Assembly (NCBI RefSeq): GCF_050296975.1
Contig: NZ_JBNKRX010000036.1
Span: 40,019-104,018, forward strand
DNA length: 64,000 nt
Direction of reading: 5' to 3'
Source of the DNA: Sulfurimonas sp.
GTDB taxonomy: Bacteria > Campylobacterota > Campylobacteria > Campylobacterales > Sulfurimonadaceae
Under the pieces are notes generated by a model. The model saw nothing but the letters and a program-made list of their open reading frames with translations, had not been told where the DNA came from and made no database searches. The position numbers were made by a program, and so were the translations under genes. Every line of letters starts with the position of its first letter. Positions within the stretch are counted from its first letter, which is position 1. Below, piece after piece: positions 3,676 to 28,273 of this stretch.

Positions 3676-4008
3676 ATGAATGAAAATACTCTTATATCAG
3701 TAATATCTTCTATTACTAACTCTTGATACCTAGATGTTAAATTTCTAATAGATAGAGTAGAAGAACACTCTCTTGATATATCAGATATCATCGAAAATGT
3801 TGAATTCAACTTTTGAAAAGAGTTTAAATCTGATATTAACTATCTAATCAATGAAGCTTTAAATCAAATAGCTTGTAAATTCATCGAATCTCATGAAGAA
3901 CTATTTGAAAATGAATCAGATGAATTTGAGATATATACAAACTATATGGATAGTCATATATATTTTACATCTGAAAAAGCTCAAGATGAGTTTGAGAAAT
4001 TCTATTAG
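3676..4008 (+). CDS. Hypothetical acidic protein, 110 aa, readable only with TGA=Gly (code 25)
   Basis: Hand translation MNENTLISVISSITNS*YLDVKFLIDRV...NVEFNF*KEFKSD...DEFEKFY, ending in TAG. Two in-frame TGA, no internal TAA/TAG. Confidence 0.6.
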
Positions 4009-4243
4009 GATTTCTCTTTTTGTACTAAAAAATTAATGCTGTGTTAATATCTCATTCATATAATAAATTTTCATAAGTATTGACTATATGATTACAATTC
4101 TTTGTTCCAAAAAATTGACATTTCGTACCCTCTATTTTTAGCTAATTTAAGCCAAAAAGTAGGCTTATTTTTTTGTCAAAAATCCAAAAATGTGTTTTAA
4201 TAAATTTAGTTGCGCAACTATTTTACATTTTAAATCAAAACAA

Positions 4244-4678
4244 ATGAGTCTATTTGAAACCTTACTTGAAATAAAAACAGAGAAGAAAGATTTACTACTA
4301 AAAGCTGTATATGTTTCTGAGTGTAATAGCTTATGAGAAGATGAGAGTTATATCTATTATTATGACCTCTTAAATCATACTTTTTACATAAATGACATAG
4401 ATTGATGAAGTTCTTGAAGAACTAGTGCTATCAATTGTATTGAAAGTATTATGAATAAAGCTTTCAAACAGGAGATGAATTCTTTTGTGGATATCCTCAA
4501 AAAAATTCAAATCACTAAAAAACCAAAAGTATTTTGTTTTTACAGGCAAAAAAATACTAAGTTGGTTGTTATAGATAAAATCTCTTTGAAAGTTAAAAGG
4601 GGAGTCCATGAAGAGATTTTATCTTTTCATTACCCTGAATGGAATCAAGGTAATATGAAATTAAAAATAATGAATTAA
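4244..4678 (+). CDS. Hypothetical protein, 144 aa, code 25 (the track shows only its last 75 aa, 4451-4678)
   Basis: ATG 4244 is in frame with 4451: ...CNSL*EDESY...INDID**SS*RTSAINCIESIMNK... Four in-frame TGA, ends TAA. Confidence 0.6.
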
Positions 4679-4724
4679 TACTATCTTTTGTATAATCAAA
4701 TCTATCAAGAAAAAGGTTTTTAAA

Positions 4725-5042
4725 ATGGATGATGACTTTGAAGATTTTAGAAGATACGAAGAATATCAAAGACAAAAAGATGCTCAGTTTGCCAAAGGTG
4801 TTGGAAACTTTTTATTCTATTATATAGGCTATGCTTTTGTATGGTTGTTTACATCTGCATTTACTGCAACGGTTCTAGAAAATATGTTTGGAGTTGGAAC
4901 TGGTACATCATTACTTGTTGGAGTAATATCAGGTTTTCTAATTTTCAAAGTACCATATGTCAAAGCCAATCCATTTAAAAGTTTTATTGTTATCTGTTTT
5001 ATCTTCGGATTGTTCATCGTAGCATTTCAGAAGAATTCTTAA
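4725..5042 (+). CDS. Small membrane protein (about 3 TM)
   Basis: Acidic N-terminus followed by hydrophobic segments. All Gly are GGN codons; ends TAA. Confidence 0.7.
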   Translation: MDDDFEDFRRYEEYQRQKDAQFAKGVGNFLFYYIGYAFVWLFTSAFTATVLENMFGVGTGTSLLVGVISGFLIFKVPYVKANPFKSFIVICFIFGLFIVAFQKNS

Positions 5043-5192
5043 GAACAATATATAGCCTTGGAAAGGCTATAGCAAGTTTGCATATGCTCTTGAATTCTTG
5101 AGAATTCAATTTACAAATGCGAAACTTGTTCAGGGAAATTAGGACAAGTCCTATCCCTAAAAACCCTTAATCGTATAAATAAAGGAATAAAA

Positions 5193-5897
5193 TTGATAAA
5201 GAATGATTTACAAAATTTTCTTAAAAAAAAGAGAATGATGAAAAAAGAAGTTTCCTCTATAGCAATTTCAACAGCAGTATCTATAGGAGTAGCATGTGTA
5301 TCAGGTGCTTTTGTTCTAGGTAAATTTATAGCACAATATGAATATATGGAACAACAACAAGAGAAACAAAAAAAGAGTTTAATATCTAAAATAGTAGAAA
5401 CAGAAATTTTATCTGAAGAGTTTTCTATTCCTGAATATAATAAAAAAGACAAAGAAATAAATAAAACTATTCAAAAGTATATTAGAGATAATCGAACTGA
5501 ATCTGAAAATAAACTAGAAGATACAAATCAAAAATGTTATGAGGGTATTGATTATAAAGAACCGTATATATTTGAAGAGAAGCAAGTAAGAGCAAAAAAT
5601 TCAGAAAAAATGGTAAATTTATGTCAAAAAGCAGTTTTATTAGACCCTTCTAATTCAAAAACCTTATTTTATTTAGCAGTTGCATATAACAAAAATAGAG
5701 ATTATACAAGGGCAATTGAAAGTTTGGAAGAAAGTGCTAATTTGGAGAATAGAATAGCTCAAAGAAAGTTAGGTATTATGTATAGAACAGGTAGTCTAGT
5801 GGAAAAGAATACTGAAAAATATTCCCATTATTTTAGTTTAGCTTCTGCAAATGGTGATAAGGCTTCTAAAATTATTCAGTATCATAATTATTATTAA
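5193..5897 (+). CDS. Membrane-anchored Sel1/TPR-repeat protein
   Basis: N-terminal TM; C-terminal 'LFYLAVAY...RAIESLEESANLENRIAQRKLGIMYRTG...YFSLASANGD' Sel1-like repeat. The true start may be one of the Met codons near 5235. Confidence 0.75.
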   Translation: MIKNDLQNFLKKKRMMKKEVSSIAISTAVSIGVACVSGAFVLGKFIAQYEYMEQQQEKQKKSLISKIVETEILSEEFSIPEYNKKDKEINKTIQKYIRDNRTESENKLEDTNQKCYEGIDYKEPYIFEEKQVRAKNSEKMVNLCQKAVLLDPSNSKTLFYLAVAYNKNRDYTRAIESLEESANLENRIAQRKLGIMYRTGSLVEKNTEKYSHYFSLASANGDKASKIIQYHNYY

Positions 5898-5901
5898 ATA
5901 T

Positions 5902-6132
5902 TTATCTCTCCCTACTAAAATCATCTCTCACAGCTTCTTGACCTCTCTCCATGAAGAAAAGAATAGTTGAAGAGAGAGTAGGTCTGTTTAGCATTTTTTG
6001 CATTTTCACTAAATAATCATACTCGTCTTGAGTTAGGGCTACAGTAATTCGTTTCTCCCTTTTTTGCTCATCATCAAGCTTTGGTCTACCAACACTTCTA
6101 TTTTTTCTTTGGTCTTTTTCTTGTTCAGTCAA
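5902..6132 (-). CDS. Small DNA-binding regulator (GRP motif plus ribbon-helix-helix-like)
   Basis: 'VGRPKLDDEQKREKRITVALTQDEYDYL'. The likely start is TTG at 6132 after AAAGGA; the track starts at 6189. Confidence 0.65.
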   Translation of the reverse strand: MTEQEKDQRKNRSVGRPKLDDEQKREKRITVALTQDEYDYLVKMQKMLNRPTLSSTILFFMERGQEAVRDDFSRER

Positions 6133-6312
6133 ATTATATCCTTTGTAAAAAGTATATAGTATCACATATAAAGAATATATTAACATCACTAAACTATTTA
6201 AATCTACTCAAATATATTTATTGAGTAATAATATAATAAAATGATGCAATAAATTAATAAATACATAAGTTATTATACTTTATCATTCATTAAATCATTC
6301 AAGGAGTCCGAA

Positions 6313-6540
6313 ATGAGTAGTGAAGAAAAAGTAATATTTGATACTTTATACACTAAGTATAAAAAGATGGCTATCTCTAAAAAAGAGATGTCTCGTGAAA
6401 CAGGTATGAGTATATCTACACTTGATAGACTCAGACGTGCAGGACATGGATGTTCATATATTCAGCAAGGTGTTGGAGATGTGTCATATCCTTTAATTGA
6501 ACTAGCAAAATATTTTGCTAATACTATAAAAACACTCTAA
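6313..6540 (+). CDS. Excisionase/AlpA-like HTH DNA-binding protein
   Basis: 75 aa, 'ISKKEMSRETGMSISTLDRLRRAGHG', AAGGAG SD. First gene of the mobilization operon. Confidence 0.7.
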   Translation: MSSEEKVIFDTLYTKYKKMAISKKEMSRETGMSISTLDRLRRAGHGCSYIQQGVGDVSYPLIELAKYFANTIKTL

Positions 6541-6551: not shown

Positions 6552-6920
6552 ATGACAACTACAGAGTATCAAAAAGCTTACAAGAAAAGTTATAGTCAAA
6601 AAAATAAGATTGTAACTTTTCCGTTAAGCATTCCATTTTATGATGAACTAAAACGAAGAGCTATACTTTTTGATGTAAGTGTAAACACTTACGCAAAAAA
6701 TATAGTTAATGGTTCACTCAACAGCTCTTCTGTAACAATTCTCACTCAAGAGAAACAAGAGATTATTAATGAATATATCCGTATATCAAGAGGGATTGCA
6801 AATAATATCAACCAAATAGCTCATCAAACTAATATAACTGAGCAAATTGATATAAGTATACTCATTAATGCGCTCAAAAACTACGAAGAAGAGTTCAAGA
6901 AATTAATCCAAAAAATCTAA
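6552..6920 (+). CDS. mobC: Relaxosome accessory protein MobC
   Basis: 'ISRGIANNINQIAHQTN' matches the MobC G(N)NxNQIA motif. Lies directly upstream of the relaxase. Confidence 0.82.
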   Translation: MTTTEYQKAYKKSYSQKNKIVTFPLSIPFYDELKRRAILFDVSVNTYAKNIVNGSLNSSSVTILTQEKQEIINEYIRISRGIANNINQIAHQTNITEQIDISILINALKNYEEEFKKLIQKI

Positions 6921-6923
6921 ATT

Positions 6924-7745
6924 ATGATAATAAAATCTATGAGCAGAAAAAGTAAATCTTTTTCTCAACTCTATGACTATTTTTGTCGTGAAGAAGCTAC
7001 ATATAGATTTTCACGAAACACTTATTCTAACGCATATAACAGAGAAAAAACTCTCAAAGAGTTCTACAATAACGCAAGGTATTTAAAAGGTGCTAGAGGT
7101 AATTTATATCTTTATCATGAAGTAATATCTTTAGACAAAAATAATCTCTCATCCGAACAAGAACAAAAAATACTTTTAGATCTTGTTGATAAGTATATCA
7201 GCCTAAGAGCAATGTATCATTTAAGTTTTGGAGTAGTACATCAAGATAAAGATAATACTCATGTACATTTGATGATAAGTGCCAATGAAATAGGTGGTTT
7301 AAAACGTATTCGCTTATCAAAAAAAGAGTATGCCTATATTCAAAAAGAACTGGAAAATTATAAAAATCAAAGATACCCTGAGTTAAGAAAAACAGCCTTG
7401 TATCAAGGTAGTAAAAATCTATCTAAAGCTAAACAAAAAGAGCAAGAAATAACTATCAGAGGTGCTACAACTATTAAACAGGAGATATATAACAATCTTC
7501 AAAGTGTATTCAATAAAGCAAGTTCATTAACATATCTCAATAATCATTTAAAAAATCTTGGTTATAAAGTCTATAAAAGAGGTAAAACTATCAGTATTAC
7601 TTACGAGGGTAAAAACTATAGATTAAAAACTCTTGGACTGGAACAACAATACAAAAACACTCTTTCAAAACTTGAAAGAATAAAAGAAAGAGAAATTAAA
7701 CGGGATAAAACTAAAGAAGATAGAAATATAAATAGAGATAGATGA
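6924..7745 (+). CDS. Relaxase/mobilization nuclease (MOBP-like)
   Basis: 'YHEVISL' and the HUH motif 'VVHQDKDNTHVHLMISAN'. Confidence 0.85.
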   Translation: MIIKSMSRKSKSFSQLYDYFCREEATYRFSRNTYSNAYNREKTLKEFYNNARYLKGARGNLYLYHEVISLDKNNLSSEQEQKILLDLVDKYISLRAMYHLSFGVVHQDKDNTHVHLMISANEIGGLKRIRLSKKEYAYIQKELENYKNQRYPELRKTALYQGSKNLSKAKQKEQEITIRGATTIKQEIYNNLQSVFNKASSLTYLNNHLKNLGYKVYKRGKTISITYEGKNYRLKTLGLEQQYKNTLSKLERIKEREIKRDKTKEDRNINRDR

Positions 7746-7792
7746 TATTCAAGAAAAACAAGAACTAATAGAATTTAGCTAAAATATGCACT

Positions 7793-9295
7793 ATGGAAAT
7801 TTTAGCTCTTATATTTATAACTTTTATCGCTTTTATGGGTATGAACGGACTATTTAGAAAAATGGGTATTAAAGCACTCAATCCGTTAGGCTTGATAGTA
7901 TCTTTTTTAACATCTCCACCACTTAAAAGTGATGGGATGATGAATAAACAAGAAGAGTTAAAAATATTTTCACGCTTTAATGACGGTCTTTTAATAGATG
8001 GAAAAAAGAAAAGACTCTCTTTAAAAGAGAGTTGTAACCACTTGGCACTTTTTAGCAGAACAGGTGGAGGAAAAACTACTAGCTATGTAATTCCAAATAT
8101 CTTTAAATTAGCTTCTGAAAACTGCTCTATGGTAATTACTGACCTAAGTGGGGAGCTATATGAAAAAACAAGCGGATATTTAAATGCTCAAGGCTTTAAA
8201 GTATATGTACTTGACCCGAAAGATTTAGAGAGTTCTATACGATACAACCCTCTTGAATATGCTAAAAGTTCAATCTCAATTGATATGGTTAGTGAAATAC
8301 TTATAGCTTCTTCAGGTCTGAAAGGTACAAGGGCAGAAGACAAAATATGGAGTGATGGAGCAAAGCATATAATCTCTATATTTATCAAGGTACTTAAAGA
8401 GACAAACGACAAACGATTTATCAATCTAGCAAATGTTAGATATATGCTAAACAATTTTGGAAGAAACGGACAGGCTCTTGATGAGTTCGTGAAGACGTAT
8501 GCAGATGATAAAACCTTTGAAGAGTACAAAGGGTTTGTCAACGGTAATGAAAAAACTATTCAAAGTTTTATAGCTACTGCAAATGCTTCATTAAGTCCTA
8601 TCGGGATTAATGATAATCTTGAAAAACTTACTTACTCTCACTCTATAGACTTTAAAAAATTTAGAGAAGAAAAATCAGTCGTATATATCCGTATTGAACA
8701 ACAATATCAGGAACAATATAGCTTTTTACTCAATCTCTTTTATGCTCAACTCTTTAATGAGATGATGGATAGACTGCCTACACAAAAAGATTATCCACTT
8801 TACTGTTTATTAGATGAGTTTGGGAATATGCAGATACCTAGATTTTCTTCAATCATTACAACAATTAGAAAGTACAAAGTCTCTATCTCTATTATCTTAC
8901 AAAATATCAATCAATTAGTAGCAAAATACTCTGAAAATGAAGCTAAGACTATACTTGATGGTGGTATTGCCTCAAAACTAATATATAGCGGTGCTGATTT
9001 AGATTTAGCAACACAACTTGAAAAGATGTTCGGTCATAAAGAGAGTCTAAAACAACAAGCTAATGGAACTCATCACTATGAAAAAGAGAGTGTTATGAGT
9101 GTAAGTGAAATAAGAACTATGAAAGATAATGAAGCTTTATTTGTGTATGCGAATAAAAAGCCTTTAAAGCTAGATGTAAAACCATATTTCAAAGATATGA
9201 TGTACAACAGTTATTCAAGATTAGCACCTTATCAATCAATGCAAAATACCTATGCTGATAGGGTGGTTTATGTTGATTTAGAAAATGTGGAGTAA
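7793..9295 (+). CDS. virD4: Type IV coupling protein (VirD4/TraG family)
   Basis: N-terminal TM, Walker A 'SRTGGGKTTSYVIPN', 'TDLSGELY', Walker B 'LLDEFGN', 'RKYKVSISIILQNINQL'. Confidence 0.9.
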   Translation: MEILALIFITFIAFMGMNGLFRKMGIKALNPLGLIVSFLTSPPLKSDGMMNKQEELKIFSRFNDGLLIDGKKKRLSLKESCNHLALFSRTGGGKTTSYVIPNIFKLASENCSMVITDLSGELYEKTSGYLNAQGFKVYVLDPKDLESSIRYNPLEYAKSSISIDMVSEILIASSGLKGTRAEDKIWSDGAKHIISIFIKVLKETNDKRFINLANVRYMLNNFGRNGQALDEFVKTYADDKTFEEYKGFVNGNEKTIQSFIATANASLSPIGINDNLEKLTYSHSIDFKKFREEKSVVYIRIEQQYQEQYSFLLNLFYAQLFNEMMDRLPTQKDYPLYCLLDEFGNMQIPRFSSIITTIRKYKVSISIILQNINQLVAKYSENEAKTILDGGIASKLIYSGADLDLATQLEKMFGHKESLKQQANGTHHYEKESVMSVSEIRTMKDNEALFVYANKKPLKLDVKPYFKDMMYNSYSRLAPYQSMQNTYADRVVYVDLENVE

Positions 9296-9298: not shown

Positions 9299-10846
9299 GT
9301 GGAAAATGTAGACTTACTTTTAGATACTGTTGGTATATACAATAAATGTGAAGTGATTGAAATATTTGGATATGACAACAAGAAAAAAAAAGCTTTCAAT
9401 ATTTATACATTAGTTATTTTTGAAAACACTAAACAGATAGAAATTGAAGGCTTATTAACTGATAAACTAAATATCTTTTCTTCTGTATCAAATATTAAAT
9501 GGGGTATAAAAAGAAGAATAGTAAGAATAAGCAAAATAAAGAAGTTTTTTGAATTATTGAAAAATAAAAATATTTACAAAATAGATAAAGAATTATCTGT
9601 TGGACAATTAAAATATTTAGATATGCAATTTATACAAGCAAATGATTCTTTTATCAAGCCTCAGTTCAATCACATATTAAAAAACAACTTTTATAATGGT
9701 TCATATGTACTAGAGTTTTTTGATGAAGAAAAAAGTAATAATCAGTTTTTACTAGAGAATGCCGTATTGCTAAATGCTTTTAGTGAAACTATTGGAGAAA
9801 TATTGCCAATTAAACTTGCTAATCTGTCTGATAGATTAGGAAATGTGGTTTTTCAATTTCCTATTAATATCTTCAAGCTTGAATATACTACAAATAGGTT
9901 GGGCAATCCACCACGATATTCTGGATTAAATATTGAGATTTCTCCAAAAATAAAGAAATATGACATTACTAATTTAGAGATTAGAGTGTATGAAAATAAT
10001 GACAATATCATTGTTCGTCAATATTCAATAATGGTTCAAAATAACTTAACTGAAATCATGTTAGATGATTGTTTTGGAACTAGACTTGAAGTAATGGATA
10101 AAGATACATCATTGTTACTTTATAGAAATAAATTCTCTATTATGAAAGAATTTAATTTTCAGATGAATTTAATAAGTCCTCAAGATAGAGTTTTTAAGTT
10201 AAATGGTGATGTGCAAAAAATTCCAATAGAGCATAATTCAACTAACAGTATTGGAAAAGCAAATCAAAAAAAGAAAGAATTTAATGAGTGGATTCATGAC
10301 AGAAAATATGAGCAAGAACTCAAATATTTAGAACAAACTAAGTCATTTATTCAATACTATGGTAAAAAAGATGAAAATATTAAGGCTTTAAATGACATAA
10401 GGTTTTTAATTAATCAATATGGCAATAATGGGGTCTATTTATGGGACCCGTATTTAAGTGCTACAGATATTAAAAATACATTGTATTTTAGTAAATTTTC
10501 ATATGTTGAATTAAGAGCGATAACAGGTTTAAAACAAGATTCACAAAAATCACAAGTAATTTTTGATATGCAAAATGAATTTAATCAAGATGATAAACAG
10601 TTTTTATTTTTAAATTTAGAAGTGAGAGGAAAATATGGCACAAATGGTTATGAATTTCATGACAGATTTTTAATATTTCCTCTAGAAAAACCTAAAGTTT
10701 GGTCATTGGGTATTTCAGTTAATCAGCTAGGAAAAGCACATCATATTTTACAAGAAGTAAAAAATGCTCAACATATTTTAAATGCATTTAATCAATTATG
10801 GATAGGACTAGATAAAAGGGAATGTTTAGTATGGAAGAGCAATTGA
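9299..10846 (+). CDS. VPA1262-family-like protein with C-terminal PLD-like domain
   Basis: C-terminal 'GVYLWDPYL...HDRFLIFP...KVWSLGISVNQLG'. The family name is from recall and was not searched. Confidence 0.6.
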   Translation: MENVDLLLDTVGIYNKCEVIEIFGYDNKKKKAFNIYTLVIFENTKQIEIEGLLTDKLNIFSSVSNIKWGIKRRIVRISKIKKFFELLKNKNIYKIDKELSVGQLKYLDMQFIQANDSFIKPQFNHILKNNFYNGSYVLEFFDEEKSNNQFLLENAVLLNAFSETIGEILPIKLANLSDRLGNVVFQFPINIFKLEYTTNRLGNPPRYSGLNIEISPKIKKYDITNLEIRVYENNDNIIVRQYSIMVQNNLTEIMLDDCFGTRLEVMDKDTSLLLYRNKFSIMKEFNFQMNLISPQDRVFKLNGDVQKIPIEHNSTNSIGKANQKKKEFNEWIHDRKYEQELKYLEQTKSFIQYYGKKDENIKALNDIRFLINQYGNNGVYLWDPYLSATDIKNTLYFSKFSYVELRAITGLKQDSQKSQVIFDMQNEFNQDDKQFLFLNLEVRGKYGTNGYEFHDRFLIFPLEKPKVWSLGISVNQLGKAHHILQEVKNAQHILNAFNQLWIGLDKRECLVWKSN

Positions 10847-12309: not shown

Positions 12310-13078
12310 TATTAATTATATTCAACAGTTCATGAATGAACTTTCAAATATGGATGTAGCTAATTTCATATTTGTAGCACTTTTATTTTCTGTACCATTC
12401 TATTTTTCAAAAAAGTCAGAAAGCTTATTTTTCCATTCTTTTTATAGCCTCATGGGAATTTATATGCTTTTTACAATGGATGACCCTAGAGTGATTTATG
12501 ATTTGAAAATGCTTGTAGGTTTAGGACTTGTAATACCACAGACTAGATTCATTATTCAGTTTACAAAAGACACAATATTTACTATCAAAATGATGACTGC
12601 AAATACCTACTATTTCTTTGTAACTTTATATTATAAAGTACTTAGATTTATAAATTGGATTCGTTCATTATATGTAATGATTCAGAGCTTTTTTAAAGGT
12701 TTTGAAGCAAAAAGTAGGGCAGATAGTAGAGATAAAAAAGAAGAATATCAAGAAAGCAATAATCAGCAAACTTACGAAGATTATAAACAAGAGCAGAAAC
12801 AAAAAGATTCATCACAACAAAGAAGTTATGAAGAACCAAAACAAGAACAAAAGACATATACCCAACAAGATGATGAGTATGCGAGATTTTATAGTGAAAG
12901 TGTTTATACAGTTTTAGGAGTGAATGTAGATGATGATTATAACACTGTAAAAAAAGCATATAGAAAATTAGTTAGAGAATTTCATCCTGATTTACATCCT
13001 GAAAATATAGAAAAATTCACAGAAATTACACAAAATATCAATAATGCTTGGGAGAAAGTCTCAAGTTGGAAAAAATAG
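12302..13078 (+). CDS. Membrane-anchored J-domain (DnaJ-like) protein
   Basis: N-terminal TM helices, Q/E-rich linker, C-terminal 'YTVLGV...VKKAYRKLVREFHPDL...INNAWE' with the HPD motif. Confidence 0.88.
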   Translation: MGDINYIQQFMNELSNMDVANFIFVALLFSVPFYFSKKSESLFFHSFYSLMGIYMLFTMDDPRVIYDLKMLVGLGLVIPQTRFIIQFTKDTIFTIKMMTANTYYFFVTLYYKVLRFINWIRSLYVMIQSFFKGFEAKSRADSRDKKEEYQESNNQQTYEDYKQEQKQKDSSQQRSYEEPKQEQKTYTQQDDEYARFYSESVYTVLGVNVDDDYNTVKKAYRKLVREFHPDLHPENIEKFTEITQNINNAWEKVSSWKK

Positions 13079-13099
13079 ATTATTTCATAACTATTTACT

Positions 13100-13441: not shown

Positions 13442-13478
13442 AAAAATTTGATTAAATTACATTTTAACATTATGATAT

Positions 13479-13622: not shown

Positions 13623-13633
13623 CTAAATAAATT

Positions 13634-15184: not shown

Positions 15185-15194
15185 AAATAGCAAG

Positions 15195-18549: not shown

Positions 18550-21500
18550 ATGGCAGTTTTTGAAATAGATAATGAAGATATAAAAAGATTAGGGGAAGTA
18601 GAGTTACCAAAACTTGTGTATCAAATAATGTATTATGAGATAGCAAAGCTAAACTTATTAAATCAGGGATTACATATATCATTAAATACAAAAACCGGTG
18701 ATGGTGGTTCAGATGGAGAATTTAATATTTTTAATAAACAGATACCTGCTAACCACCAATTTTTACCAAACAACAGTATTGTATTCCAATTTAAAGCAGC
18801 TGAAATAGGTGCGAAAGCTTGGTTTGAGAAAGAAATTATAGATGAGAAAACAAAAGATTTAAAACCAAAACTAAAAGAATATATCCAGCAAAACTATACA
18901 TATATTTTAATTACCAATAGAACAGATTTACCAGCAAGTAACCTTGAGGCTAAAGAAAAAATTTTAAAAGATTTGTTTAATGATTATGGATATTCAAATG
19001 TGTCAGTTAAAATTATTGATTTAACAAAACTTGCAGAATGGGCAAATAGTATTCCTCAAATATATTTGACACAAAATCCTAATACAAGGTACTTTGAATT
19101 ATTTGAAAGTTACGAAAATGAAATACGACAAAATAGTGAAGATGTTGAATATGTGAATGATGAAAAAAGAGAAAGTGATATATTACAAATTAGAGATAAT
19201 ATAAATAACACTCTTAGAACAGGAACATCTTCATTTATTAGAATAGAGGGATTCTCAGGAATTGGAAAAACAAGGTTTGTTTATGAAGCATTAAATAATG
19301 ATGATTTTAAACAATTGGTTATCTATGTACAAATGTATAATGATGAACTTTTTGGAGATTTGTTATTATATTGTAAGAAACGTGCGGAAAACACTCAAGA
19401 ATTAGTCATTTTTGTCATTGATGAGTGTTCTTATGAAGATCATATCCGTATATGTAGAGGACTAAAACAATATTCAAATTTAGTAATAATTACAATTAAT
19501 CAACTTTTATCAGAGCAGGATAAAGTTAACTGTAAAGAAGAATATAGAATTACTTTAGAGGGTTTAAGTGAAGAGAAAAGTGTTGAATTGATTCAAAAAG
19601 TCAATCCAATTTTAGATAATGATATAGCTAAAAAAATTGCTTATTATACGGAAGGTTATCCAAGACTTGCATACTTTATGGCTAGTTCTTATGATGTTGA
19701 ATCTGGAGATACACATAGTGCTGATGAAAAGTCACAATTATTAGATAAAACACTTTCTACGATTACAAATGATGCAGATGAAATTGTTATTTTACAAGCA
19801 ATTTCAATTTTTAAGCTTTTTCCAGATAATGATGATGTGAAAATATATAAAAAAATTATTTTTGAACATTTTGATATTAATATAGCTAAAGCATCCGTCA
19901 TAATTCAAAAGTTGATAAAAAAAGGCATTATTAGAAATGCTGGAAGATTTTTGTATATAAGTCCAAGACCTATTTCTATTCATCTATTTAATCAGTTTCT
20001 ATCTACATATGATTATGAATTTATTGATGAATTATTTATAAAACTTGATAATCAAGGGTTAATGAATAGTTTCTTTGAAAAATTACAAGGTATTGAATTT
20101 GATTCAAGACAACACAAGGAGTTACTTTTTCGTATTCTATCGAAGCTCACATATGAACAAATAAATGATGAGTTAGGTTCAAAAATCTTCTATTCTCTTT
20201 GCTTAAAAGATAGAGAATATTCCATAGGTATGTTAACAAAATTATTTCATGATAAATCAACAGATGAGTTACTACAGTTTAATGAGGGGAGAAGGTATAT
20301 AGTATTTGCTCTTGATAAACTTATCTCTTTTGAAAATACATTTAACGATAGTGCTAAAATTCTATTCAGACTAGCCATGGCTGAAAATGAATCTTGGGGC
20401 AACAATTCAAAAGGAATTTTTAAAGATTCTTTTACATGGATACTGAGTGGAACAGAAGTAAATATTGTTGATAGATTGAACTTTTTAAAGGAACTATATA
20501 AGGAGTATTCGGACAAAGAAAGTAGGATGTTTTTATTAGATAGTTTATCTAATGCATATCCAAAGCATAGTTATATTGGTAGTCACAAAAATAGTGAAAA
20601 TTTTCCTGAAAATATCCCTGAACATTATCGTCCAAATACTCAAGATGAAATTGATGAATATTTTGTTAAGCTCAAAGAGTTAATAGCATTTTTGTATGAA
20701 CATTCCTCTGTTTATTTGAAAGGTAAAATTTTAAGTGATTTAATTTCAACGCTAAGAACTCTAATAATATATAAGCAAATTGATACATGGATTCTTGATT
20801 TTATAGTGCATAACTTAGAGGATAATACCCATTTAAAAGGAAAGTTTTTAGAAGAAATCTCTTTTACGTTAAAGCATGATAAAGGCGATAAATCAGATGA
20901 AGTATTAAAATATCTACACACTCTTAATAATAAAGCTCTTAGTACTGAAAATATTGATGAAGTAAAAGAGATGTTTTATTCAACTGAACAATATAGATAT
21001 CATGATGAAGATGTATTCAATCAGCACTGTAGATTATTAGCAGAAAATCTTTTTAAGACTAAAGATTTTGATATATTATTAAATAGTCATACTTCTAATA
21101 CTTTTTTTATAGGTAAAGAACTTGCATTAATAGATAGTGAAAACACTCTATATGATGATATTTTAGCTCTTATGTCAAAACTAGATAAAAACTCTAATAT
21201 GAGATTTATAACTGGGTATATATTTAACAATAAGATGAGTGATGAATCACAATTCAAGAAATTATTTGATGAAATATATAACAGGTTAAATGATAAGAGT
21301 TTAATGTTTGAATTTATTTATGCGTCTAATGGAAATAATGAAATTATTTTTGAATATTTGTTTTCACTTCTTGAAAAAAAAGAGATAGCTTCTGAAATGT
21401 TAGAACGCTTGATTTATGGTTTTTGGTTACGAGAAGTAAAAGTAGATGATTTTGAAAAGTTTATAGATAAAATTAATTCTATTATTGAAAATAAGTGTGA

Positions 21501-22278
21501 TAGTTTTCCATTATGTAGACAGTATATACAACAAAATAAAAATAAACACTTGATAGAAAAATATTTACCTTACTATATAAGCAACGATATATTAAAATGT
21601 AAAAATGTAAGAATAGACCGTGATATAGTGAGCATGACTGAAAGTTACTTGTCTTATGGTTTAGAATTTTCAACAACCTTATTAGAAAAAGTTTGGGAAT
21701 CAGTTCTAATAGAATTTAAGAATAATGGAAATTTTGAACGTAGTGAATTTGATAGTGTATATAAAATATTAGAGAAGTATCCTGATTTTTTTTGGAATAA
21801 ATTAAAAGATAATTTAGATGAAGTACAACCTTCTAAATATCCAACTTATAGTACTTATCTTCATTTTACTCAAGGCGGATATTTAGCTAGACATTATTCA
21901 AATTCTATTTTTAGAAATATAGATACTAAAAAGATTGTGGAATGGTTAAAAACCACTCCATTTAAAGATGCAAAATACTTAATTGCTGATTCACTTAATA
22001 TAGATTTTCAAAGCAATACTTTACCTGAAATAGTAATCAAGTTACTAGAAGAATATCCTAATGATATTGATTTGTACTATAGTATTACTGTTAAAAGTGA
22101 AGGGTGGACAGGGTCTTATGTACATGTGGCAAATGAAAAGATATCTAATGTTGATAAAATGCTTGAAGATAACAAAGATAATAAAAAAGTGATGGATTTT
22201 TTACTTTGGGCTAAAAAAAGTTTTGAATCTCGTAAAGAAAGAGCACAGAGAGAAGACGAAGAAAGAAATATATATTAA
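18550..22278 (+). CDS. Large STAND-like NTPase with N-terminal restriction-endonuclease-like domain (Avs-like defence candidate)
   Basis: N-terminal 'TGDGGSDG...IVFQFKA', Walker A 'GFSGIGKTRF', Walker B 'FVIDEC', 'EGYPRLA', and a long helical C-terminus; 1242 aa. Confidence 0.72.
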   Translation: MAVFEIDNEDIKRLGEVELPKLVYQIMYYEIAKLNLLNQGLHISLNTKTGDGGSDGEFNIFNKQIPANHQFLPNNSIVFQFKAAEIGAKAWFEKEIIDEKTKDLKPKLKEYIQQNYTYILITNRTDLPASNLEAKEKILKDLFNDYGYSNVSVKIIDLTKLAEWANSIPQIYLTQNPNTRYFELFESYENEIRQNSEDVEYVNDEKRESDILQIRDNINNTLRTGTSSFIRIEGFSGIGKTRFVYEALNNDDFKQLVIYVQMYNDELFGDLLLYCKKRAENTQELVIFVIDECSYEDHIRICRGLKQYSNLVIITINQLLSEQDKVNCKEEYRITLEGLSEEKSVELIQKVNPILDNDIAKKIAYYTEGYPRLAYFMASSYDVESGDTHSADEKSQLLDKTLSTITNDADEIVILQAISIFKLFPDNDDVKIYKKIIFEHFDINIAKASVIIQKLIKKGIIRNAGRFLYISPRPISIHLFNQFLSTYDYEFIDELFIKLDNQGLMNSFFEKLQGIEFDSRQHKELLFRILSKLTYEQINDELGSKIFYSLCLKDREYSIGMLTKLFHDKSTDELLQFNEGRRYIVFALDKLISFENTFNDSAKILFRLAMAENESWGNNSKGIFKDSFTWILSGTEVNIVDRLNFLKELYKEYSDKESRMFLLDSLSNAYPKHSYIGSHKNSENFPENIPEHYRPNTQDEIDEYFVKLKELIAFLYEHSSVYLKGKILSDLISTLRTLIIYKQIDTWILDFIVHNLEDNTHLKGKFLEEISFTLKHDKGDKSDEVLKYLHTLNNKALSTENIDEVKEMFYSTEQYRYHDEDVFNQHCRLLAENLFKTKDFDILLNSHTSNTFFIGKELALIDSENTLYDDILALMSKLDKNSNMRFITGYIFNNKMSDESQFKKLFDEIYNRLNDKSLMFEFIYASNGNNEIIFEYLFSLLEKKEIASEMLERLIYGFWLREVKVDDFEKFIDKINSIIENKCDSFPLCRQYIQQNKNKHLIEKYLPYYISNDILKCKNVRIDRDIVSMTESYLSYGLEFSTTLLEKVWESVLIEFKNNGNFERSEFDSVYKILEKYPDFFWNKLKDNLDEVQPSKYPTYSTYLHFTQGGYLARHYSNSIFRNIDTKKIVEWLKTTPFKDAKYLIADSLNIDFQSNTLPEIVIKLLEEYPNDIDLYYSITVKSEGWTGSYVHVANEKISNVDKMLEDNKDNKKVMDFLLWAKKSFESRKERAQREDEERNIY

Positions 22279-22353: not shown

Positions 22354-23082
22354 TTATCTAATATATAAACCGCAAGAAGAAACACTGTCTTTGTATTTTG
22401 TAAATTCAGAACCAAATATTTGCTCTAGTTCTTTATCTTCATTTCTAGCTCTCCTTAGATTGATTAATGCAATAATTAATGGGAATAATAAAAGTAGGTA
22501 GCTAGTACCAGCTATTGCTGTTCCAAAAGCAAGTAAAAATTGTGATACATATATTGGATGTCTAAGACGAGAATAGATACCATTAGTTTTTAACTTTTGG
22601 TTGTTTTTATCTGTATATATGACTATGTTAGGATTCCAATAGCCATTAATTACTGCTCTTGCTAATGCTGCCATTCTTAGACCATAAAACATGATAATTA
22701 ATCCAATACTGGGTAGAAGATATGTAATTAGAAAGATATATTTATCTTCATATTTTTCTTGAACATTAGATGAAATATTATTAAGTATTGCTACATCATC
22801 AGATATTTTAGTGTTTATAATATCGTTAGGGTTGATATCGAACCATAATAAAAGTTGATTTAGAAGAACTATAGATACACCGACTAATTGAAAAGATATG
22901 TTGAAATTTATTTTTTCTTCTTTTTCTGCACTTATCAATTTTGAATTATATTCATCATGTTTACTTGCATACCAATATAAACTAATGAATACAAGCCATA
23001 AGAAGTAGGCAACTCTCAATGGAATAGGTATTCCATAATATAGATATTCTAAAGATTCTATTATTAGTTCTAAGATATTCAC
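22354..23082 (-). CDS. Isoprenylcysteine carboxylmethyltransferase (ICMT/PEMT) family membrane protein
   Basis: Multi-TM, 'LKTNGIYSRLRHPIYVS', 'EDKELEQIFGSEFTKYK'. Confidence 0.82.
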   Translation of the reverse strand: MNILELIIESLEYLYYGIPIPLRVAYFLWLVFISLYWYASKHDEYNSKLISAEKEEKINFNISFQLVGVSIVLLNQLLLWFDINPNDIINTKISDDVAILNNISSNVQEKYEDKYIFLITYLLPSIGLIIMFYGLRMAALARAVINGYWNPNIVIYTDKNNQKLKTNGIYSRLRHPIYVSQFLLAFGTAIAGTSYLLLLFPLIIALINLRRARNEDKELEQIFGSEFTKYKDSVSSCGLYIR

Positions 23083-23340: not shown

Positions 23341-23685
23341 ATGCCAATTCCACCAATTCAAAAACAATTAGCAGAAAAATTAATGCATAGATATTGTGAT
23401 AATAAGATTCCAAAAGAATTACAAGATCAAATAAATTTGAAGTATGTAATTAAAGGAAACAATATCACTTTAGTGGAATCTAGACCTTTTTGGAAAGATG
23501 AAAGTAAATGGATTGATACAAATATAGCTCAAATACGCTTCAATAATGCAGAGAAAACTTATACTCTATATTATGCAGATAGAAATGATAAATGGCATTT
23601 TTATGAATTTTTAGAACCATCTCAAAATTTAGAAGATTTATTAACTGAATTAGATAATGATTCTATAGGAATCTTTTTTGGCTGA
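23341..23685 (+). CDS. DUF3024 domain protein
   Basis: 'GNNITLVESRPFW...IAQIRF...LYYADRNDKWHFY...IFFG'. Ends at the expected family C-terminus with TGA as a true stop, so code 11. Confidence 0.82.
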   Translation: MPIPPIQKQLAEKLMHRYCDNKIPKELQDQINLKYVIKGNNITLVESRPFWKDESKWIDTNIAQIRFNNAEKTYTLYYADRNDKWHFYEFLEPSQNLEDLLTELDNDSIGIFFG

Positions 23686-23697: not shown

Positions 23698-23952
23698 TTA
23701 GCCCTCAATCAAACTACTAATACTAATATTCAAAACTTTTGAAATCTTGTAAATATGCTCCAAATTAAAGTGTTTGTTGTATCTGACACTTTCACAGTTT
23801 GAATAAAATGCAACAGATTTTATACCTATTGCTAGGGCTAAATCAAGTTGTGATATATTTGCACTGATTCTAGCTTCTTTCACATTCTCACCAATCTTTT
23901 TATAAAAAGACATAACTTCTTTATTGCTTACATCACTTAACTGCTTTTCCAT
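23698..23952 (-). CDS. XRE-family HTH transcriptional regulator
   Basis: 'IGENVKEARISANISQLDLALAIG...FNLEHIYKISKVLNI'. Confidence 0.85.
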   Translation of the reverse strand: MEKQLSDVSNKEVMSFYKKIGENVKEARISANISQLDLALAIGIKSVAFYSNCESVRYNKHFNLEHIYKISKVLNISISSLIEG

Positions 23953-24770: not shown

Positions 24771-24872
24771 TGAAAAGGCTATGAAAAAATAGCCTTTTTT
24801 TGCACTTCAAAATAAAGTATGATACACTTTATCTAACTCCTAAACAATTTTACAAAATTAATAATCAATCAT

Positions 24873-26549
24873 ATGTCATTAGAACAAGCAAGTTCACATC
24901 TTAATGAATGACCTAGTATTAAAGATACACCTGAGTATCAAGAACAATTAAATCATAGAGTTAAAAAAATTGAAGAGTGAGAAAAAAATTATAAACACCT
25001 AGTACAAGTAAATAATGTATTAAATGTACTTGATATACCTGATGAACAAGAACAAATATTCAGACAAACACTTGATAATTTAGATTCACAAGTTTTAAAA
25101 GACTTAACGACAAAAACTAGATGAGAAATATTAGTTATTTTAGCTAATACTACCACTGAAAATAAAAACCTACAAACAGAAGAAGACAATAATATTATTT
25201 CAAAAGAATCAGAAGCTCAAAATAAAGAATATCAAGAAACTGATGAAAAATACGAAAAAATTAAAAATATACTTCCTGATTGAATTTATAACTGAGATTC
25301 AAAATATCAAAAATTAGTACAAGCATTAAATAGCTTTGACAATTTACAAGCTTGAGAAAATTCAAACGAAAATAATGATAAAAAAATAGAAGCTTTAAAA
25401 GTTATTTTAGATGAATTAAAAAACTGAGATGTTTTAAATTCTATAGTAAAAGAACTAGGTTGAGCTAATCCAAACAATCCACAATATCAAGAATTCAAAA
25501 ATACTTTAATAAATTTAGACCCAAGTTTTAAAGAGCTTTTAGCACCGTTGGAAAGAATAGAGCAGGGTATGAATCTAAATTCTAATGATGTTGTTAAATG
25601 AATTGAAAATGACTCATGAGGAATGGTAGATATAGATTTAAAATCTAATATCTCAAGACTACATCTTCCCGAAAGTGATTATAACTTTGAAAAAGAGTTC
25701 GATAAGCAAGAGCTTTGAAAACTTCAAACAAAATTTGATATTGAGATGAAAGAACTTAAGAGAAGTACAACTTCTCTTAAAGGCTTGTACAAGCCTTTTG
25801 CCTCTTTATTTAGTGAAGTAGCTAGTGTTAATGCAGAAAACAACTTTCAAGATACTCTAAAAAGCTCTGTATCAAAATTCCAAAGAGATGCTTTTAATGA
25901 TATGGATGATGTTTATGAAAATATGGATATTGATTCAAGTATTCAAATTAATGAGGCAGACATCAATTCTCTAGCAAGTAGTAAAACTCCTGAAGAGTTC
26001 AATGAAAAAAGAGAAAAGATCTTAGATAAATTTAAAAAAATAGCTACTGTAATTGAAAACAAAAAAGAAACAATAGAGCAAAACTATAATGATGAAATTA
26101 AAGAGCTTACAACTGAAGATAGTGAAACGCAAGAAAAACAAGTTGAAGTTTTAAAATATCTAAAATCTAGTGGATTTGATTTAATTCCAAAAGAAATAAC
26201 AGATAGACTTATAAACAGCATTCAAGCAGGATTACTGATAATCCCTTGACTTGATTTAAGTATTCAAAATATAGACCTTTCTAAGTGACATTTTTGAGAA
26301 AATTCAGCTTTTATAGATAAGAGTGCTTGAATCAACATAGGTGCTAAAACTAACCTTGTAAAGTTTATGAATAAACTGATTACTTGAGATATAAATGAGC
26401 CTTTATCTGTTGATGGAATATCAAATTGAGTGACGGTAGCTAATCCAGCTTTTCTACAAAACAAATTTTTAGAATCAAATATAGCTACAAGTATGAATTG
26501 GAATTATTGAAAAATGGTTGAGAATTTGAAAAAAGATGTAAGTTCCTAG
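24873..26549 (+). CDS. Hypothetical acidic, helical protein, 558 aa, code 25 (the track shows only 25746-26249)
   Basis: Full hand translation from ATG 24873 to TAG 26547-26549. 18 in-frame TGA, no internal TAA/TAG, E/K/N-rich. Confidence 0.82.
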
Positions 26550-26572
26550 AGTATTTTCTAGGAACTTTTTTT
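26541..26572. terminator. Terminator hairpin between convergent genes
   Basis: AGTTCCTAGA-GTATTT-TCTAGGAACT followed by a T-run. Confidence 0.6.
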
Positions 26573-26798
26573 AATTTAGATTATTATTTGTACTAGAGTC
26601 AGGATTACTAACAGGTGTCTTCACACCATTAATATCTCTGACATGATAATTTGGATAGTTCCCAGATTCAATTTGTTTCACAAATTGAGACCTAGTCATA
26701 TCATTTCCATTATAGTTATCATGAAACCTTTGGTTTCGACCAGTGTCACTTTCAGATGTAACAGATACGCGTTTTCTAGCCATCGTAATGACCTCCAT
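26571..26798 (-). CDS. Small conserved hypothetical protein (about 70 aa)
   Basis: 'MARKRVSVTSESDTGRNQRFHD...YHVRDINGVKTPVSNPD..TNNNL' has typical protein composition; the likely start is MARK. Confidence 0.7.
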   Translation of the reverse strand: MEVITMARKRVSVTSESDTGRNQRFHDNYNGNDMTRSQFVKQIESGNYPNYHVRDINGVKTPVSNPDSSTNNNLN

Positions 26799-26930
26799 TC
26801 TAAAGTTAAGGCATTAATGTAATTAATATCACTTTAACATTTTATATATATGTTCTTTTGATTTATAAAAATATGGCAAATTGCAAAAAATTATTATAAT
26901 ATAGCAAACAAAACTATAAAAAGAAAATAT

Positions 26931-27713
26931 ATGGATGATAATAAATATTTAAGACTTCCTAATGCAGATAGTACATTAATTAATGCACCTGATGGAAGTG
27001 ATACAACAATTGAAGTAGGTCTTTTTAAAGACCATAGGTTTGCTTTTTATTTTTGGTTTAAATGGTGGAAGCAAACAACTAGAAAACTTAATGATGATAC
27101 TCAAAAAGCACCATCACTTATATCTATAGATTGGCATCGAGATTTATGTGCTCCTTGTGATTCTGAAAAAACAGATTTGGAAAGTTTAAATTTAAATAGT
27201 TATAAAGAAGTTGCTTTATTTTCATGGGATAAGCTTAATCCCTTGAATGACGGACATATATTGTCAGCAGTATATTTAAATTTAATAGGTGATGTATATG
27301 TCTTGTGCAAACAAGATGAAGATTTAGAAGAGGAAAACTTTATTGACCGTTGGGGTTATGTACATAAAGTTAAATGTTTCTCAACTAAAGAAGAACTTTT
27401 AGCAGAAGTTAAAAAAGATCAAGTAGAAGATATATATTTTGATATTGACTTAGATTATTTTACAGAAAGTGATGAAGCATGTGGAGCTGGTGAAAATATG
27501 AATCTTAGAGATGATGAGGTAGTTTATATTTTAGATATTGAATCAGACTTTATGGATTGGATTTTTCAAAATATGAGAGGAATGACAATCGCTACAGAAC
27601 CTGAATTTTGTGGAGGTATAAAAAACTCTAATAAGATTTATGATTTATTAGATAGTACATTGTTTTATAGTCAATTATTTAGCTATGAAGCTAAATGGAA
27701 ACATTTACAGTAA
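26931..27713 (+). CDS. UPF0489-family protein (arginase/deacetylase-like fold)
   Basis: 'FKDHRFAF', 'ISIDWHRDL', 'FDIDLDYF', 'IATEPEFCGG'. Confidence 0.75.
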   Translation: MDDNKYLRLPNADSTLINAPDGSDTTIEVGLFKDHRFAFYFWFKWWKQTTRKLNDDTQKAPSLISIDWHRDLCAPCDSEKTDLESLNLNSYKEVALFSWDKLNPLNDGHILSAVYLNLIGDVYVLCKQDEDLEEENFIDRWGYVHKVKCFSTKEELLAEVKKDQVEDIYFDIDLDYFTESDEACGAGENMNLRDDEVVYILDIESDFMDWIFQNMRGMTIATEPEFCGGIKNSNKIYDLLDSTLFYSQLFSYEAKWKHLQ

Positions 27714-27817
27714 ATGCGTTGAAGATAAGTGTAGGGGGTGTAGTACTGATAGTTTAAAGAATTGATTTACTGCAAAAAATGAATATCATTTTTTGAAATA
27801 CTTTTTAATTTATTTAT

Positions 27818-28273
27818 ATGACATATATTGAAAATAACTTATTACCGAATGAAGAAATAATTTATGAAGGTAAGATACATGGATTTTATATATTTTTATT
27901 AGTAATGTGATTAATCATTGGTATGATTTTCTTTCTAATATGATTACAAGTACCTCCCATGTGGTTACTTTGATTTTGAATGATAATCGGGTTTGGATAC
28001 AACCTATTATTTTTCAAGTTAACTGAAATTGCTGTTACAAACAAAAGAGTAATTTTTAAAACATGAGTAATTGCTAGAAATGTATTTGAATTACAATTAC
28101 AAAAAGTAGAAAGTGCAAGATTAGACCAATCGATAATTGAGAGAATTATCGGAGCTGGTACATTAGTTGTAAGTTGAACTTGAGGTCATAATAAACCTAT
28201 GAACTATATAGCAAAACCTACAGAGATGAGAACAGTTATTTATGAAGAAATTGAAAAGCAAAAATCTAATTAA
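27818..28273 (+). CDS. bPH_2 (bacterial PH domain) membrane protein, 151 aa, code 25; absent from the track
   Basis: MTYIENNLLPNEEIIYEGKIH...'AVTNKRVIFKT*VIARNVFELQLQKVES...IIGAGTLVVS*T*GH'. TGA=Gly restores the TNKRVIxKTG and GTGG motifs. Seven TGA, ends TAA. Confidence 0.88.

Follow-up and report, generated by a model that had tools for sequence, protein, structure and literature searches.

A Sulfurimonas mobilizable element with genes in two genetic codes and its relatives in Campylobacterota and UGA=Gly Patescibacteria

An integrative element at xth and its two classes of genes

The DNA analyzed here (the window) is a stretch of 64,000 nucleotides from Sulfurimonas sp., contig NZ_JBNKRX010000036.1, positions 40,019 to 104,018. 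It comes from a contig of a Sulfurimonas metagenome-assembled genome (MAG; GCA_050297235.1), to which it was identical base for base over all stretches compared. Judged from its sequence, window ~2382-29601 is an integrative mobilizable element (IME) of ~27.2 kb located at the 3' end of the gene xth in the Sulfurimonas chromosome, and its genes appear to fall into two classes, one readable under both the standard bacterial code (code 11) and code 25, in which UGA encodes glycine, and one that only a code-25 cell could translate in full. In a sister MAG (GCA_050293305.1) and in one Logan contig the site is empty: a gene of 345 amino acids (aa; 1255-2292) is joined straight to xth (29605-30381, reverse strand), an exonuclease III family gene (Pfam PF03372) and the target of integration. 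In these empty-site contigs (L003 and L005), window position 2381 is joined to 29602 with a 25-bp overlap. A three-way comparison revealed an imperfect att repeat of ~25 bp with a 7-bp core, AATYCCA, overlapping the 3' end of xth; the left copy, attL, lies at 2357-2381 (core AATTCCA at 2375-2381), and the right copy, attR, at 29602-29626 (core AATCCCA at 29620-29626), where it overlaps the last xth codons. Integration at xth used a site typical of a tyrosine integrase, and a TGA-free tyrosine integrase gene with a Shine-Dalgarno motif (28307-29422, reverse strand; Pfam PF00589) is the likely integrase in the Sulfurimonas host.

The analysis found an integrase, att repeats on both sides of the element, and a relative with an empty site, along with a relaxase, the accessory protein MobC, and a type IV coupling protein (T4CP). 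No match to VirB4 or any other mating-pore component was detected in Pfam, NCBIfam, or PHROGs, and five large proteins had no family match. Because a relaxase and a T4CP are present without recognized mating-pore genes, the element is classed as an IME, whose transfer would need a type IV secretion system supplied by a helper. Pfam scans of 17 genes gave no match to families of phage structure or replication, and PHROGs matches were confined to an HTH regulator. The GC content of the element is 26-27%, versus 35% for the host.

Eight frames of the element, all on the forward strand, start with ATG, end with TAA or TAG, contain no internal TAA or TAG, and carry 1 to 26 in-frame TGA codons each. 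They encode the small protein r110 (3676-4008; 2 TGA); the small protein r144, conserved in the family described below (4244-4678; 4 TGA); a DUF7222 protein (13100-13441; 2 TGA; PF23864, E=5e-25); r47, a protein of 47 aa (13479-13622; 1 TGA); a large serine recombinase (LSR; 13634-15184; 18 TGA); a DUF805 membrane protein (15476-16549; 26 TGA and 3 GGN codons); r558, a protein of 558 aa (24873-26549; 18 TGA); and a bPH_2 membrane protein (27818-28273; 7 TGA). TAA and TAG are expected at ~6% of codons at the local base composition, so that an open frame of 516 codons, as in the LSR gene, is not due to chance (probability ~1e-14, by arithmetic from the codon counts). TGA makes up 78 of the 110 Gly-type codons in the eight recoded genes and none of the 206 in 18 other element genes. 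In a six-frame scan with TAA and TAG as the only stops, the other long genes had either no in-frame TGA or one at the very end. An earlier first-pass annotation, made from the sequence alone, had drawn attention to these eight frames, and its description of them was confirmed.

That annotation had also placed TGA at conserved glycines, and further analysis agreed. Reading TGA as Gly gave Pfam matches for four of the eight frames (Resolvase plus Recombinase, DUF805, DUF7222, and bPH_2), and TGA is the codon for conserved glycines in the resolvase, DUF805, and bPH_2 motifs. In alignments with homologs, the TGA columns were ~5-fold enriched in Gly, with no enrichment in Trp, and at the TGA positions of the window LSR, G is found in an NCBI code-25 protein that a Candidatus Gracilibacteria contig encodes. 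Enrichment in Gly without enrichment in Trp indicates code 25 and not code 4 (TGA=Trp), and the recoded genes are accordingly best read, from these alignments, as written in the UGA=Gly code. Code 4 was excluded on this ground; the share of TGA in the large recoded genes (3-7% of codons in 13634-15184, 15476-16549, and 24873-26549) also counted against it. Many database homologs of the LSR show W at the window TGA positions because the pipelines translated them with code 4. UGA=Gly is the code of Gracilibacteria and Absconditabacteria.

The host flank follows ordinary code 11, with no in-frame TGA in ~9,500 codons and several genes that stop at TGA. Avoidance of TGA stops by the host was considered and rejected: 1 of 24 genes to the right of the element ends in TGA, but genes on the left side use it. 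Within the window, nothing suggests that the Sulfurimonas carrier decodes UGA as Gly: its flank genes lack in-frame TGA, some of them end in TGA, and there is no tRNA gene. No tRNA of any kind was detected in the element or the window with ARAGORN, nor any tRNA or other RNA gene with Rfam at E<=1; no UCA-anticodon tRNA was found in ~60 related loci, and no suppressor tRNA in the window or its relatives. Under code 11 the first TGA falls at codons 13-44 of the recoded genes, so that a code-11 host could make only stubs of 12-43 residues. The truncation foreseen by the first-pass annotation is thus borne out, as is its expectation that standard annotation would miss these genes, which code-11 calls break into fragments.

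On sequence features the genes can be assigned to two classes. Class 1, which comprises the genes for ORF6N, MobC, relaxase, T4CP, the DnaJ-domain protein, the tyrosine integrase, and the large cargo, has no in-frame TGA and mostly carries Shine-Dalgarno sites; it should be readable under code 11 and code 25 alike. Class 2, which comprises r110, r144, DUF7222, r47, LSR, DUF805, r558, and bPH_2, uses TGA as its main Gly codon and has no Shine-Dalgarno sites, and its full proteins would be made only in a UGA=Gly cell, either Gracilibacteria or Absconditabacteria.

Among the TGA-free genes, those on the forward strand encode an ORF6N-domain protein (2662-3534; Pfam PF10543, E=1e-32), whose homologs adjoin the LSR gene in the related loci L014-L016; n105, a conserved hypothetical protein (4725-5042) with homologs in L010, L019, L021, L024, and L032; a TPR-repeat protein (5193-5897; Pfam TPR_17); n75, a small HTH-like protein with a strong Shine-Dalgarno motif (6313-6540); the relaxosome accessory protein MobC (6552-6920; Pfam PF05713); and a membrane protein with a C-terminal DnaJ domain (12302-13078), which always lies 3' of the T4CP gene in the family. 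The small conserved protein n95, with a weak RHH-like match, is encoded on the reverse strand (5902-6189). The T4CP (VirD4/TraG; 7793-9295, forward strand; PF02534, E=1e-51) has 27 GGN codons and no TGA, and its homologs occur in Arcobacter, Sulfurimonas, Halarcobacter, and Poseidonibacter.

Other forward-strand genes of the element use TGA as a stop. The relaxase gene (MobA/VirD2 nuclease domain; 6924-7745) stops at a TGA at 7745, and code 25 would add 11 codons; the gene for a VPA1262 N-terminal-domain family protein (9299-10846; NCBIfam NF040700, E=2e-62), which is outside the conserved family backbone, would gain 4 codons, the gene for the hypothetical protein n495 (10822-12309) would gain 2, and the DUF3024 gene (23341-23685), whose TGA at 23685 lies exactly at the end of the domain, would gain 50. 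TGA stops had been claimed for the relaxase, DUF3024, and lepB; the first two stood, whereas no lepB or signal peptidase match was obtained in any element gene scanned. Several lineages share the TGA stop of the relaxase, and beyond it the frame stays open for another 11-24 codons (L013 2569-3507; window 6924-7778), so that code-25 hosts would make a longer relaxase. Within the DUF3024 gene, positions 23396-23425 gave a weak Rfam match to CRISPR-DR6 (E=0.75) that is almost certainly due to chance.

The cargo includes TGA-free genes for the hypothetical proteins n508 (16897-18423, reverse strand) and n260 (26931-27713, forward strand), an ICMT/PEMT-family membrane methyltransferase (22354-23082, reverse strand), and an HTH_3 (Xre-type) regulator (23698-23952, reverse strand), as well as a gene for the large hypothetical protein n1242 (18550-22278, forward strand; 41 GGN, 0 TGA), with a homolog in L049. 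No family match was found for r558, n508, n1242, or n495 in Pfam, NCBIfam, or PHROGs. The DUF805 gene is bracketed by a pair of direct repeats of ~120 nucleotides, of which copy 1 (15196-15315) starts with a reverse-strand piece resembling a tRNA 3' end and copy 2 (16615-16733) is 84% identical to copy 1. A relic of the region coding for the LSR C-terminal tail then follows (16788-16862, forward strand; 84% identical to 15089-15163). The repeats and the relic look like scars of earlier recombination at a tRNA site; the tRNA-like fragment beside the LSR gene had no match among the related loci compared. A second variable island adjoins the IME site, to the left of the 345-aa gene (window 1-1250 versus L003 6931-9430). 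In L003 it holds a full RE_AlwI gene and an N6_N4 methyltransferase gene, and in the window a truncated RE_AlwI gene followed by Phage_pRha and Peptidase_S24 genes.

The element family in Campylobacterota

Homologs of the T4CP at 51-80% identity were found in ~27 Campylobacterota genomes, assigned to Sulfurimonas (including a single-cell genome), Arcobacter, Aliarcobacter, Halarcobacter, Sulfurovum, Nitratifractor, and Sulfuricurvum. In many Campylobacterota genomes and in metagenome contigs from JGI, ENA, and Logan, the genes recur in the order r144 - n105 - n95 - n75 - MobC - relaxase - T4CP - DnaJ - r47 - LSR - ORF6N - r110. The window element is a circular permutation of the L014-type order, opened between ORF6N and the cargo arm that ends in the tyrosine integrase gene. 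The backbone genes lacked in-frame TGA in every case; for the T4CP, no TGA was present among ~27 Gly codons in ~36 sequences spanning 51-98% identity, including a copy in a code-25 chromosome. The recoded genes carried TGA in every case, with 7-23 in LSR, 2-5 in r144, 1-3 in r110 (homologs in L021, L024, L025, L032, L034, and L014), and 16-22 in r558 (homologs in L021, L023, L025, and L049). Genomes of Halarcobacter, Arcobacter, Aliarcobacter, and Sulfurimonadaceae carry the mosaic, among them a complete Halarcobacter chromosome (CP182352.1) and two contigs of >1 Mb, in which the flanking host genes are TGA-free. Furthermore, r110, r144, and the r47-LSR pair hold the same positions over clades whose T4CPs are only 54-78% identical. 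r47 always lies just upstream of LSR, the DUF7222 gene is linked to LSR in L007, L009, and L046, and r144, r110, and r558 were seen only in mosaic elements. An AlphaFold model of the r144 homolog P0272 reached a pLDDT of 86; it had no structural match in the PDB or BFVD, and r144 had no match in Pfam or PHROGs.

Relatives in Campylobacterota have a tRNA or transfer-messenger RNA (tmRNA) gene directly beside the DnaJ end of the element (Arg, Phe, Met, Glu, or tmRNA; loci L021, L023, L027, L030, L033, L035, L040, L041, and L092), and the variety of these genes indicates that family members use different chromosomal targets. Related elements also encode an N6_N4 DNA methyltransferase (L010 13067-13861; L085 14804-15553) with intermediate TGA use, 5-6 TGA versus 17-18 GGN codons.

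A mosaic element is also present in the closed genome of a cultured isolate, Poseidonibacter parvus LPB137 (L092; CP019070.1, 2219197-2240714), beside the tmRNA gene. It encodes a tyrosine integrase (42% identical to that of the window), r47, a T4CP (70%), and the DnaJ protein, and its LSR gene is an intact frame of 525 codons with 21-22 in-frame TGA, 62% identical to the window LSR. The gene calls recorded for this assembly show only two short open reading frames in the LSR region. The element also carries a Hachiman defense pair (HamA and a helicase), and an IS3 is inserted in its relaxase gene. Since code-11 annotation shreds the recoded genes, the phenomenon is invisible in current databases, this closed isolate genome included.

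The origin of the window in a MAG and the sharp boundaries of the recoded blocks, which leave genes uncut, would both fit an assembly chimera or concatenated Sulfurimonas and Gracilibacteria contigs. However, Logan assemblies of two read sets from the same project matched window 933-5460 and 9944-16392 at 100% identity, and the matched stretches take in the junctions that flank recoded block 1 (3540-4680) and recoded block 2 (13080-16390); the check on junctions that the first-pass annotation had proposed thus came out against a chimera. The junctions at 24800-28280 were confirmed on MAG contigs only. In addition, the same mosaic recurs in unrelated metagenomes, in contigs of >1 Mb, in one complete chromosome, and in one closed isolate genome, and non-Gly codon usage is uniform over both gene classes. 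An assembly chimera is excluded for the window mosaic at the junctions tested, and as a general explanation it has a vanishingly small chance of being correct.

Sequence divergence points to selection on the recoded genes. In a trio of elements whose T4CPs are 98-99% identical, synonymous divergence (pS) was 0.15-0.23 for r144 versus 0.20-0.23 for the T4CP gene, the ratio of nonsynonymous to synonymous divergence (pN/pS) of r144 was 0.18-0.23, and TGA and GGN interchanged between close copies. The match in pS, the low pN/pS, and this interchange indicate that r144 descended together with the backbone and has evolved as a coding gene in which TGA stood for Gly. LSR copies from mosaic contexts had pN/pS of 0.14-0.37 when compared with one another, close to the values for copies from code-25 genomes; all of these ratios rest on tens of substitutions. 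The frames of >25 LSR and ~12 r144 copies, compared at 40-70% identity, were all open.

The two gene classes were also compared in codon usage and start regions. Non-Gly codon usage correlated at 0.97 between the classes and at 0.73 and 0.83 with the host. A Shine-Dalgarno-like motif was found in 0 of 8 recoded genes versus 12 of 18 TGA-free genes of the element (Fisher p=0.002) and, across the family, in 0 of 60 recoded versus 30 of 72 TGA-free genes. The corresponding counts were 0 of 51 for code-25 chromosomal genes, 16 of 22 for Sulfurimonas genes, and 15 of 23 for flank genes of other Campylobacterota. This contrast, which does not depend on TGA, indicates that each gene class bears the translation signals of a different host type.

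The serine recombinase and its code-25 relatives

The LSR is a protein of 516 aa with a Resolvase domain (PF00239, residues 3-149), a Recombinase domain (PF07508, residues 178-258), and the catalytic Ser in a YYRKSTD motif, and it has >200 database homologs at 40-69% identity. Its closest relatives are encoded in fully code-25 contigs (L048, L060, L066, and L070), and one of them, P0032, is named Ca. Gracilibacteria. The closest relative of the bPH_2 protein (63% identical, 11 TGA) is likewise encoded in the code-25 contig L048, so that for both proteins the best matches fell where the first-pass annotation had expected them. In all eight LSR homologs in code-25 contexts the 3' end of the gene overlaps a tRNA gene (Glu-CTC in five, and Glu-TTC, Trp, and Cys in one each); none does so in mosaic contexts.

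Contig L013 provides a link between these contexts. Three contigs from other samples, L014, L015, and L016, match it at 99.4-99.8% identity over r144...MobC-relaxase-T4CP-DnaJ-LSR, and the identity ends at TTTGGTACT, inside the FSFGT motif of the LSR. Beyond this core, L014-L016 continue with the LSR tail and then ORF6N. L013 continues with a tRNA-Glu(CTC) gene and genes for L11, a VirB4-like ATPase (29 TGA), SpoIIE, FtsA (37 TGA), and FtsZ (27 TGA), the last with a tubulin GGGTGTG motif partly encoded by TGA. Most Gly codons of native code-25 genes, including the VirB4-like gene, are TGA, and this gene lies ~700 bp from the integrated element. The two arrangements correspond to an attP x attB exchange, in which L014 represents the attP form and L013 the integrated form, with the core TTTGGTACT at the 3' end of tRNA-Glu. 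The L013 junction, with a core of 7-9 nucleotides, has the same position as seven other LSR-tRNA junctions, which a k-mer misassembly would not produce. L013 therefore holds a mosaic element with a TGA-free transfer module that its TGA-rich LSR has inserted into a code-25 chromosome. No empty attB was recovered from neighbors of L11, as the contig there stops at the site itself. In the window, the LSR gene is present only in the unrecombined, attP-like form, with the core TTTGGTACTTCCAAGGGG at 15074-15091 within its 3' end, where 14 of 16 nucleotides match the 3' end of tRNA-Glu.

Proposed movement between host types and comparison with known systems

Collectively, these findings suggest that the window element probably belongs to a family that has one gene set per host type and moves between Campylobacterota and code-25 Patescibacteria. 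Whether mobilizable elements routinely cross the code boundary in this manner, with the code deciding which gene program runs in which cell, seems to us evenly balanced. In such a cycle the element would excise, MobC and the relaxase would nick the DNA, and the T4CP would hand it to the secretion system of a helper. A UGA=Gly cell would be able to read every gene, and the LSR made there would insert the element in a tRNA gene, the situation seen in L013. A code-11 cell would make neither the LSR nor the other class 2 proteins, and the tyrosine integrase would be used instead. The genetic code would in this way act as a host switch between the two gene sets. The Campylobacterota and code-25 Patescibacteria partners would presumably live in contact, and the VirB4-type system of Patescibacteria is a plausible candidate for the helper pore.

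Several observations weigh against movement of a single family between the two host types. A mosaic backbone inside a code-25 chromosome is seen in only one lineage, L013, and no near-identical element was found in both host types, so that transfer, in either direction, is something we infer from sequence comparison. No mating-pore genes were recognized, and most class 2 genes have no assigned function. The r144 trio lies on short contigs of element DNA only, whose hosts are uncertain. In P. parvus the relaxase gene is cut by the insertion sequence and the LSR gene is still intact, so that an open frame in a single genome is no proof of current selection. The similar, AT-rich codon usage of the two gene classes could have arisen by convergence. 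Loci of the Sulfurovum/Nitratifractor type have no recoded genes in the stretch captured, and an r144 homolog from a Helicobacteraceae MAG (L041, 3508-3916) runs across two frames, an apparent frameshift that may reflect decay or an error in sequencing. Finally, the LSR is not strictly coinherited with the backbone: the T4CPs of L010 and L032 are 98% identical and their LSRs 69%, indicating that LSR modules have been exchanged. LSR and T4CP distances correlate in part (Mantel r=0.78, p=0.016), and a strict co-phylogeny was rejected in view of clear module swapping.

Some of these observations would fit another scenario, in which a Campylobacterota IME repeatedly captures genes from code-25 Patescibacteria or their phages, and these genes stay unexpressed in code-11 lineages and are lost over time. 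The recoded genes are untranslatable in Sulfurimonas, LSR modules are swapped between near-identical backbones, scar-like repeats bracket the DUF805 gene, some clades have no recoded genes, and one r144 copy is frameshifted. Yet r110, r144, and r47-LSR have kept their positions while the T4CPs diverged to 54-78% identity, r144 has the pS of the backbone with pN/pS of ~0.2, the numerous LSR and r144 copies are all open, and a sister element was integrated through its LSR in a code-25 chromosome. We therefore regard dead cargo as unlikely, although repeated capture could be the source of part of the cargo, such as DUF805. The same evidence bears on two proposals of the first-pass annotation. It had read the recoded genes as at least four separate blocks captured in turn; since r110, r144, and r47-LSR are syntenic across the family and the pS of r144 matches that of the T4CP gene, there were probably not four separate captures. 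It had also proposed a recent acquisition of CPR (Candidate Phyla Radiation) type, which is upheld insofar as the genes are UGA=Gly genes and the LSR and bPH_2 proteins are nearest to those of fully code-25 contigs, except that what the Sulfurimonas strain recently acquired is the whole element and not four blocks. The association between CPR bacteria and Campylobacterota that it suggested gains support from the sister element integrated in a code-25 chromosome.

The family could instead be native to code-25 Patescibacteria, with the Campylobacterota insertions a dead-end spillover and the TGA-free module a recent loan from Campylobacterota. In fully code-25 genomes the LSR family is indeed common and actively used for integration at tRNA genes, and the GC content of the element is well under that of its host. 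We nevertheless consider this improbable: the named T4CP homologs (~27 genomes) are all from Campylobacterota, bar one 5-kb contig binned as Paceibacterota and three distant matches; the T4CP gene is TGA-free over deep divergence, while native code-25 genes write most Gly as TGA; the TGA-free genes bear Shine-Dalgarno sites that code-25 chromosomal genes lack; and in Campylobacterota the tyrosine integrases act on sites at xth and at tRNA and tmRNA genes. About equally doubtful is expression of the recoded genes in the code-11 host when a helper element, a phage, or the host supplies a UGA-to-Gly tRNA. IMEs rely on helper elements, the recoded genes are still intact in a cultured code-11 isolate, and regulation by code switching has reportedly been described in phages (Borges et al.); expression of this kind would resemble the late-gene control of phages with recoded stop codons. 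Against such suppression, the element has no tRNA gene, and none of ~60 related loci has a UCA-anticodon tRNA. TGA serves as a stop in the host, Shine-Dalgarno sites of the kind used by Campylobacterota genes are missing from the recoded genes, and integration by the LSR family takes place at tRNA genes in code-25 genomes.

A changed genetic code is widely regarded as a firewall to gene exchange, and containment in synthetic biology relies on it. If an element family does move between Campylobacterota and code-25 Patescibacteria, its presence on both sides of the UGA stop/Gly boundary would show a natural way around this firewall, in which shared functions are kept free of the reassigned codon and host-specific functions are written in the code of the host, a cheap and absolute switch of expression. 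The elements would further identify Campylobacterota (Sulfurimonas, Arcobacter, and relatives) as organisms with which environmental Gracilibacteria are physically associated or on which they prey. In one recent study the hosts of groundwater Gracilibacteria were not identifiable by co-occurrence (PMC11452946); shared elements would offer a sequence-based handle on the organisms on which environmental Gracilibacteria depend and would point to Campylobacterota. Full-text literature searches returned no description of a conjugative-type element with a code-neutral backbone, code-25-only genes, and two integrases partitioned by code, nor of such a mosaic element integrated in chromosomes of both code types.

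The element resembles IMEs in its integrase, att repeats, and empty site, in its MobC, relaxase, and T4CP without recognized mating-pore genes, and in inserting at a gene's 3' end, which in relatives is that of a tRNA or tmRNA gene. Unlike IMEs, it has two integrases that belong to different families and are partitioned by genetic code, roughly a quarter of its genes cannot be read in the resident host, and its family appears in hosts of two codes. The LSR shares with the large serine recombinases of prophages and of ICEs (integrative and conjugative elements) the Resolvase and Recombinase domains, the catalytic Ser, and a predicted unidirectional integration at a short core. It differs from them in that the attP core lies inside the 3' coding end of its own gene, so that integration would swap the C-terminal tail, in its targeting of tRNA 3' ends in code-25 genomes, and in the ~20 TGA=Gly codons that the gene has even when carried in code-11 genomes.

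Phages with stop-codon recoding in part of the genome have reportedly been described by Borges et al. and with Mgcod. As in these phages, gene blocks in different codes share one replicon, and the code may gate expression. Partly recoded phages reassign TAG to Gln or TGA to Trp, carry suppressor tRNAs, and switch within one host; in the element, TGA stands for Gly, no tRNA gene is present, and any switch would take place from one host to another. The element also differs from recoded phages in having no phage structural or replication genes and no suppressor tRNA of its own. Chromosomal VirB4-type machinery is widespread in Patescibacteria/CPR, with few relaxases (bioRxiv 10.1101/2025.01.22.634366); a VirB4-like gene lies near the element in L013, where such a system could serve as the helper. 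A further parallel is with phages predicted for Gracilibacteria and Absconditabacteria, which avoid in-frame TGA and are compatible with codes 11 and 25 (Liu et al. 2023 mBio; PMC10746230). In both cases genes of shared function avoid TGA and TGA stops are backed by a nearby TAA or TAG, and both go with the idea that a change of code need not be an absolute barrier. The phages contain no in-frame TGA at all, and CRISPR spacers were the basis for assigning their hosts. The element, in contrast, is no phage and is not code neutral in every gene, with 78 TGA in 8 genes and none in the other 18; it keeps a gene set that only code 25 would read, and its family is found integrated in the chromosomes of both host types.

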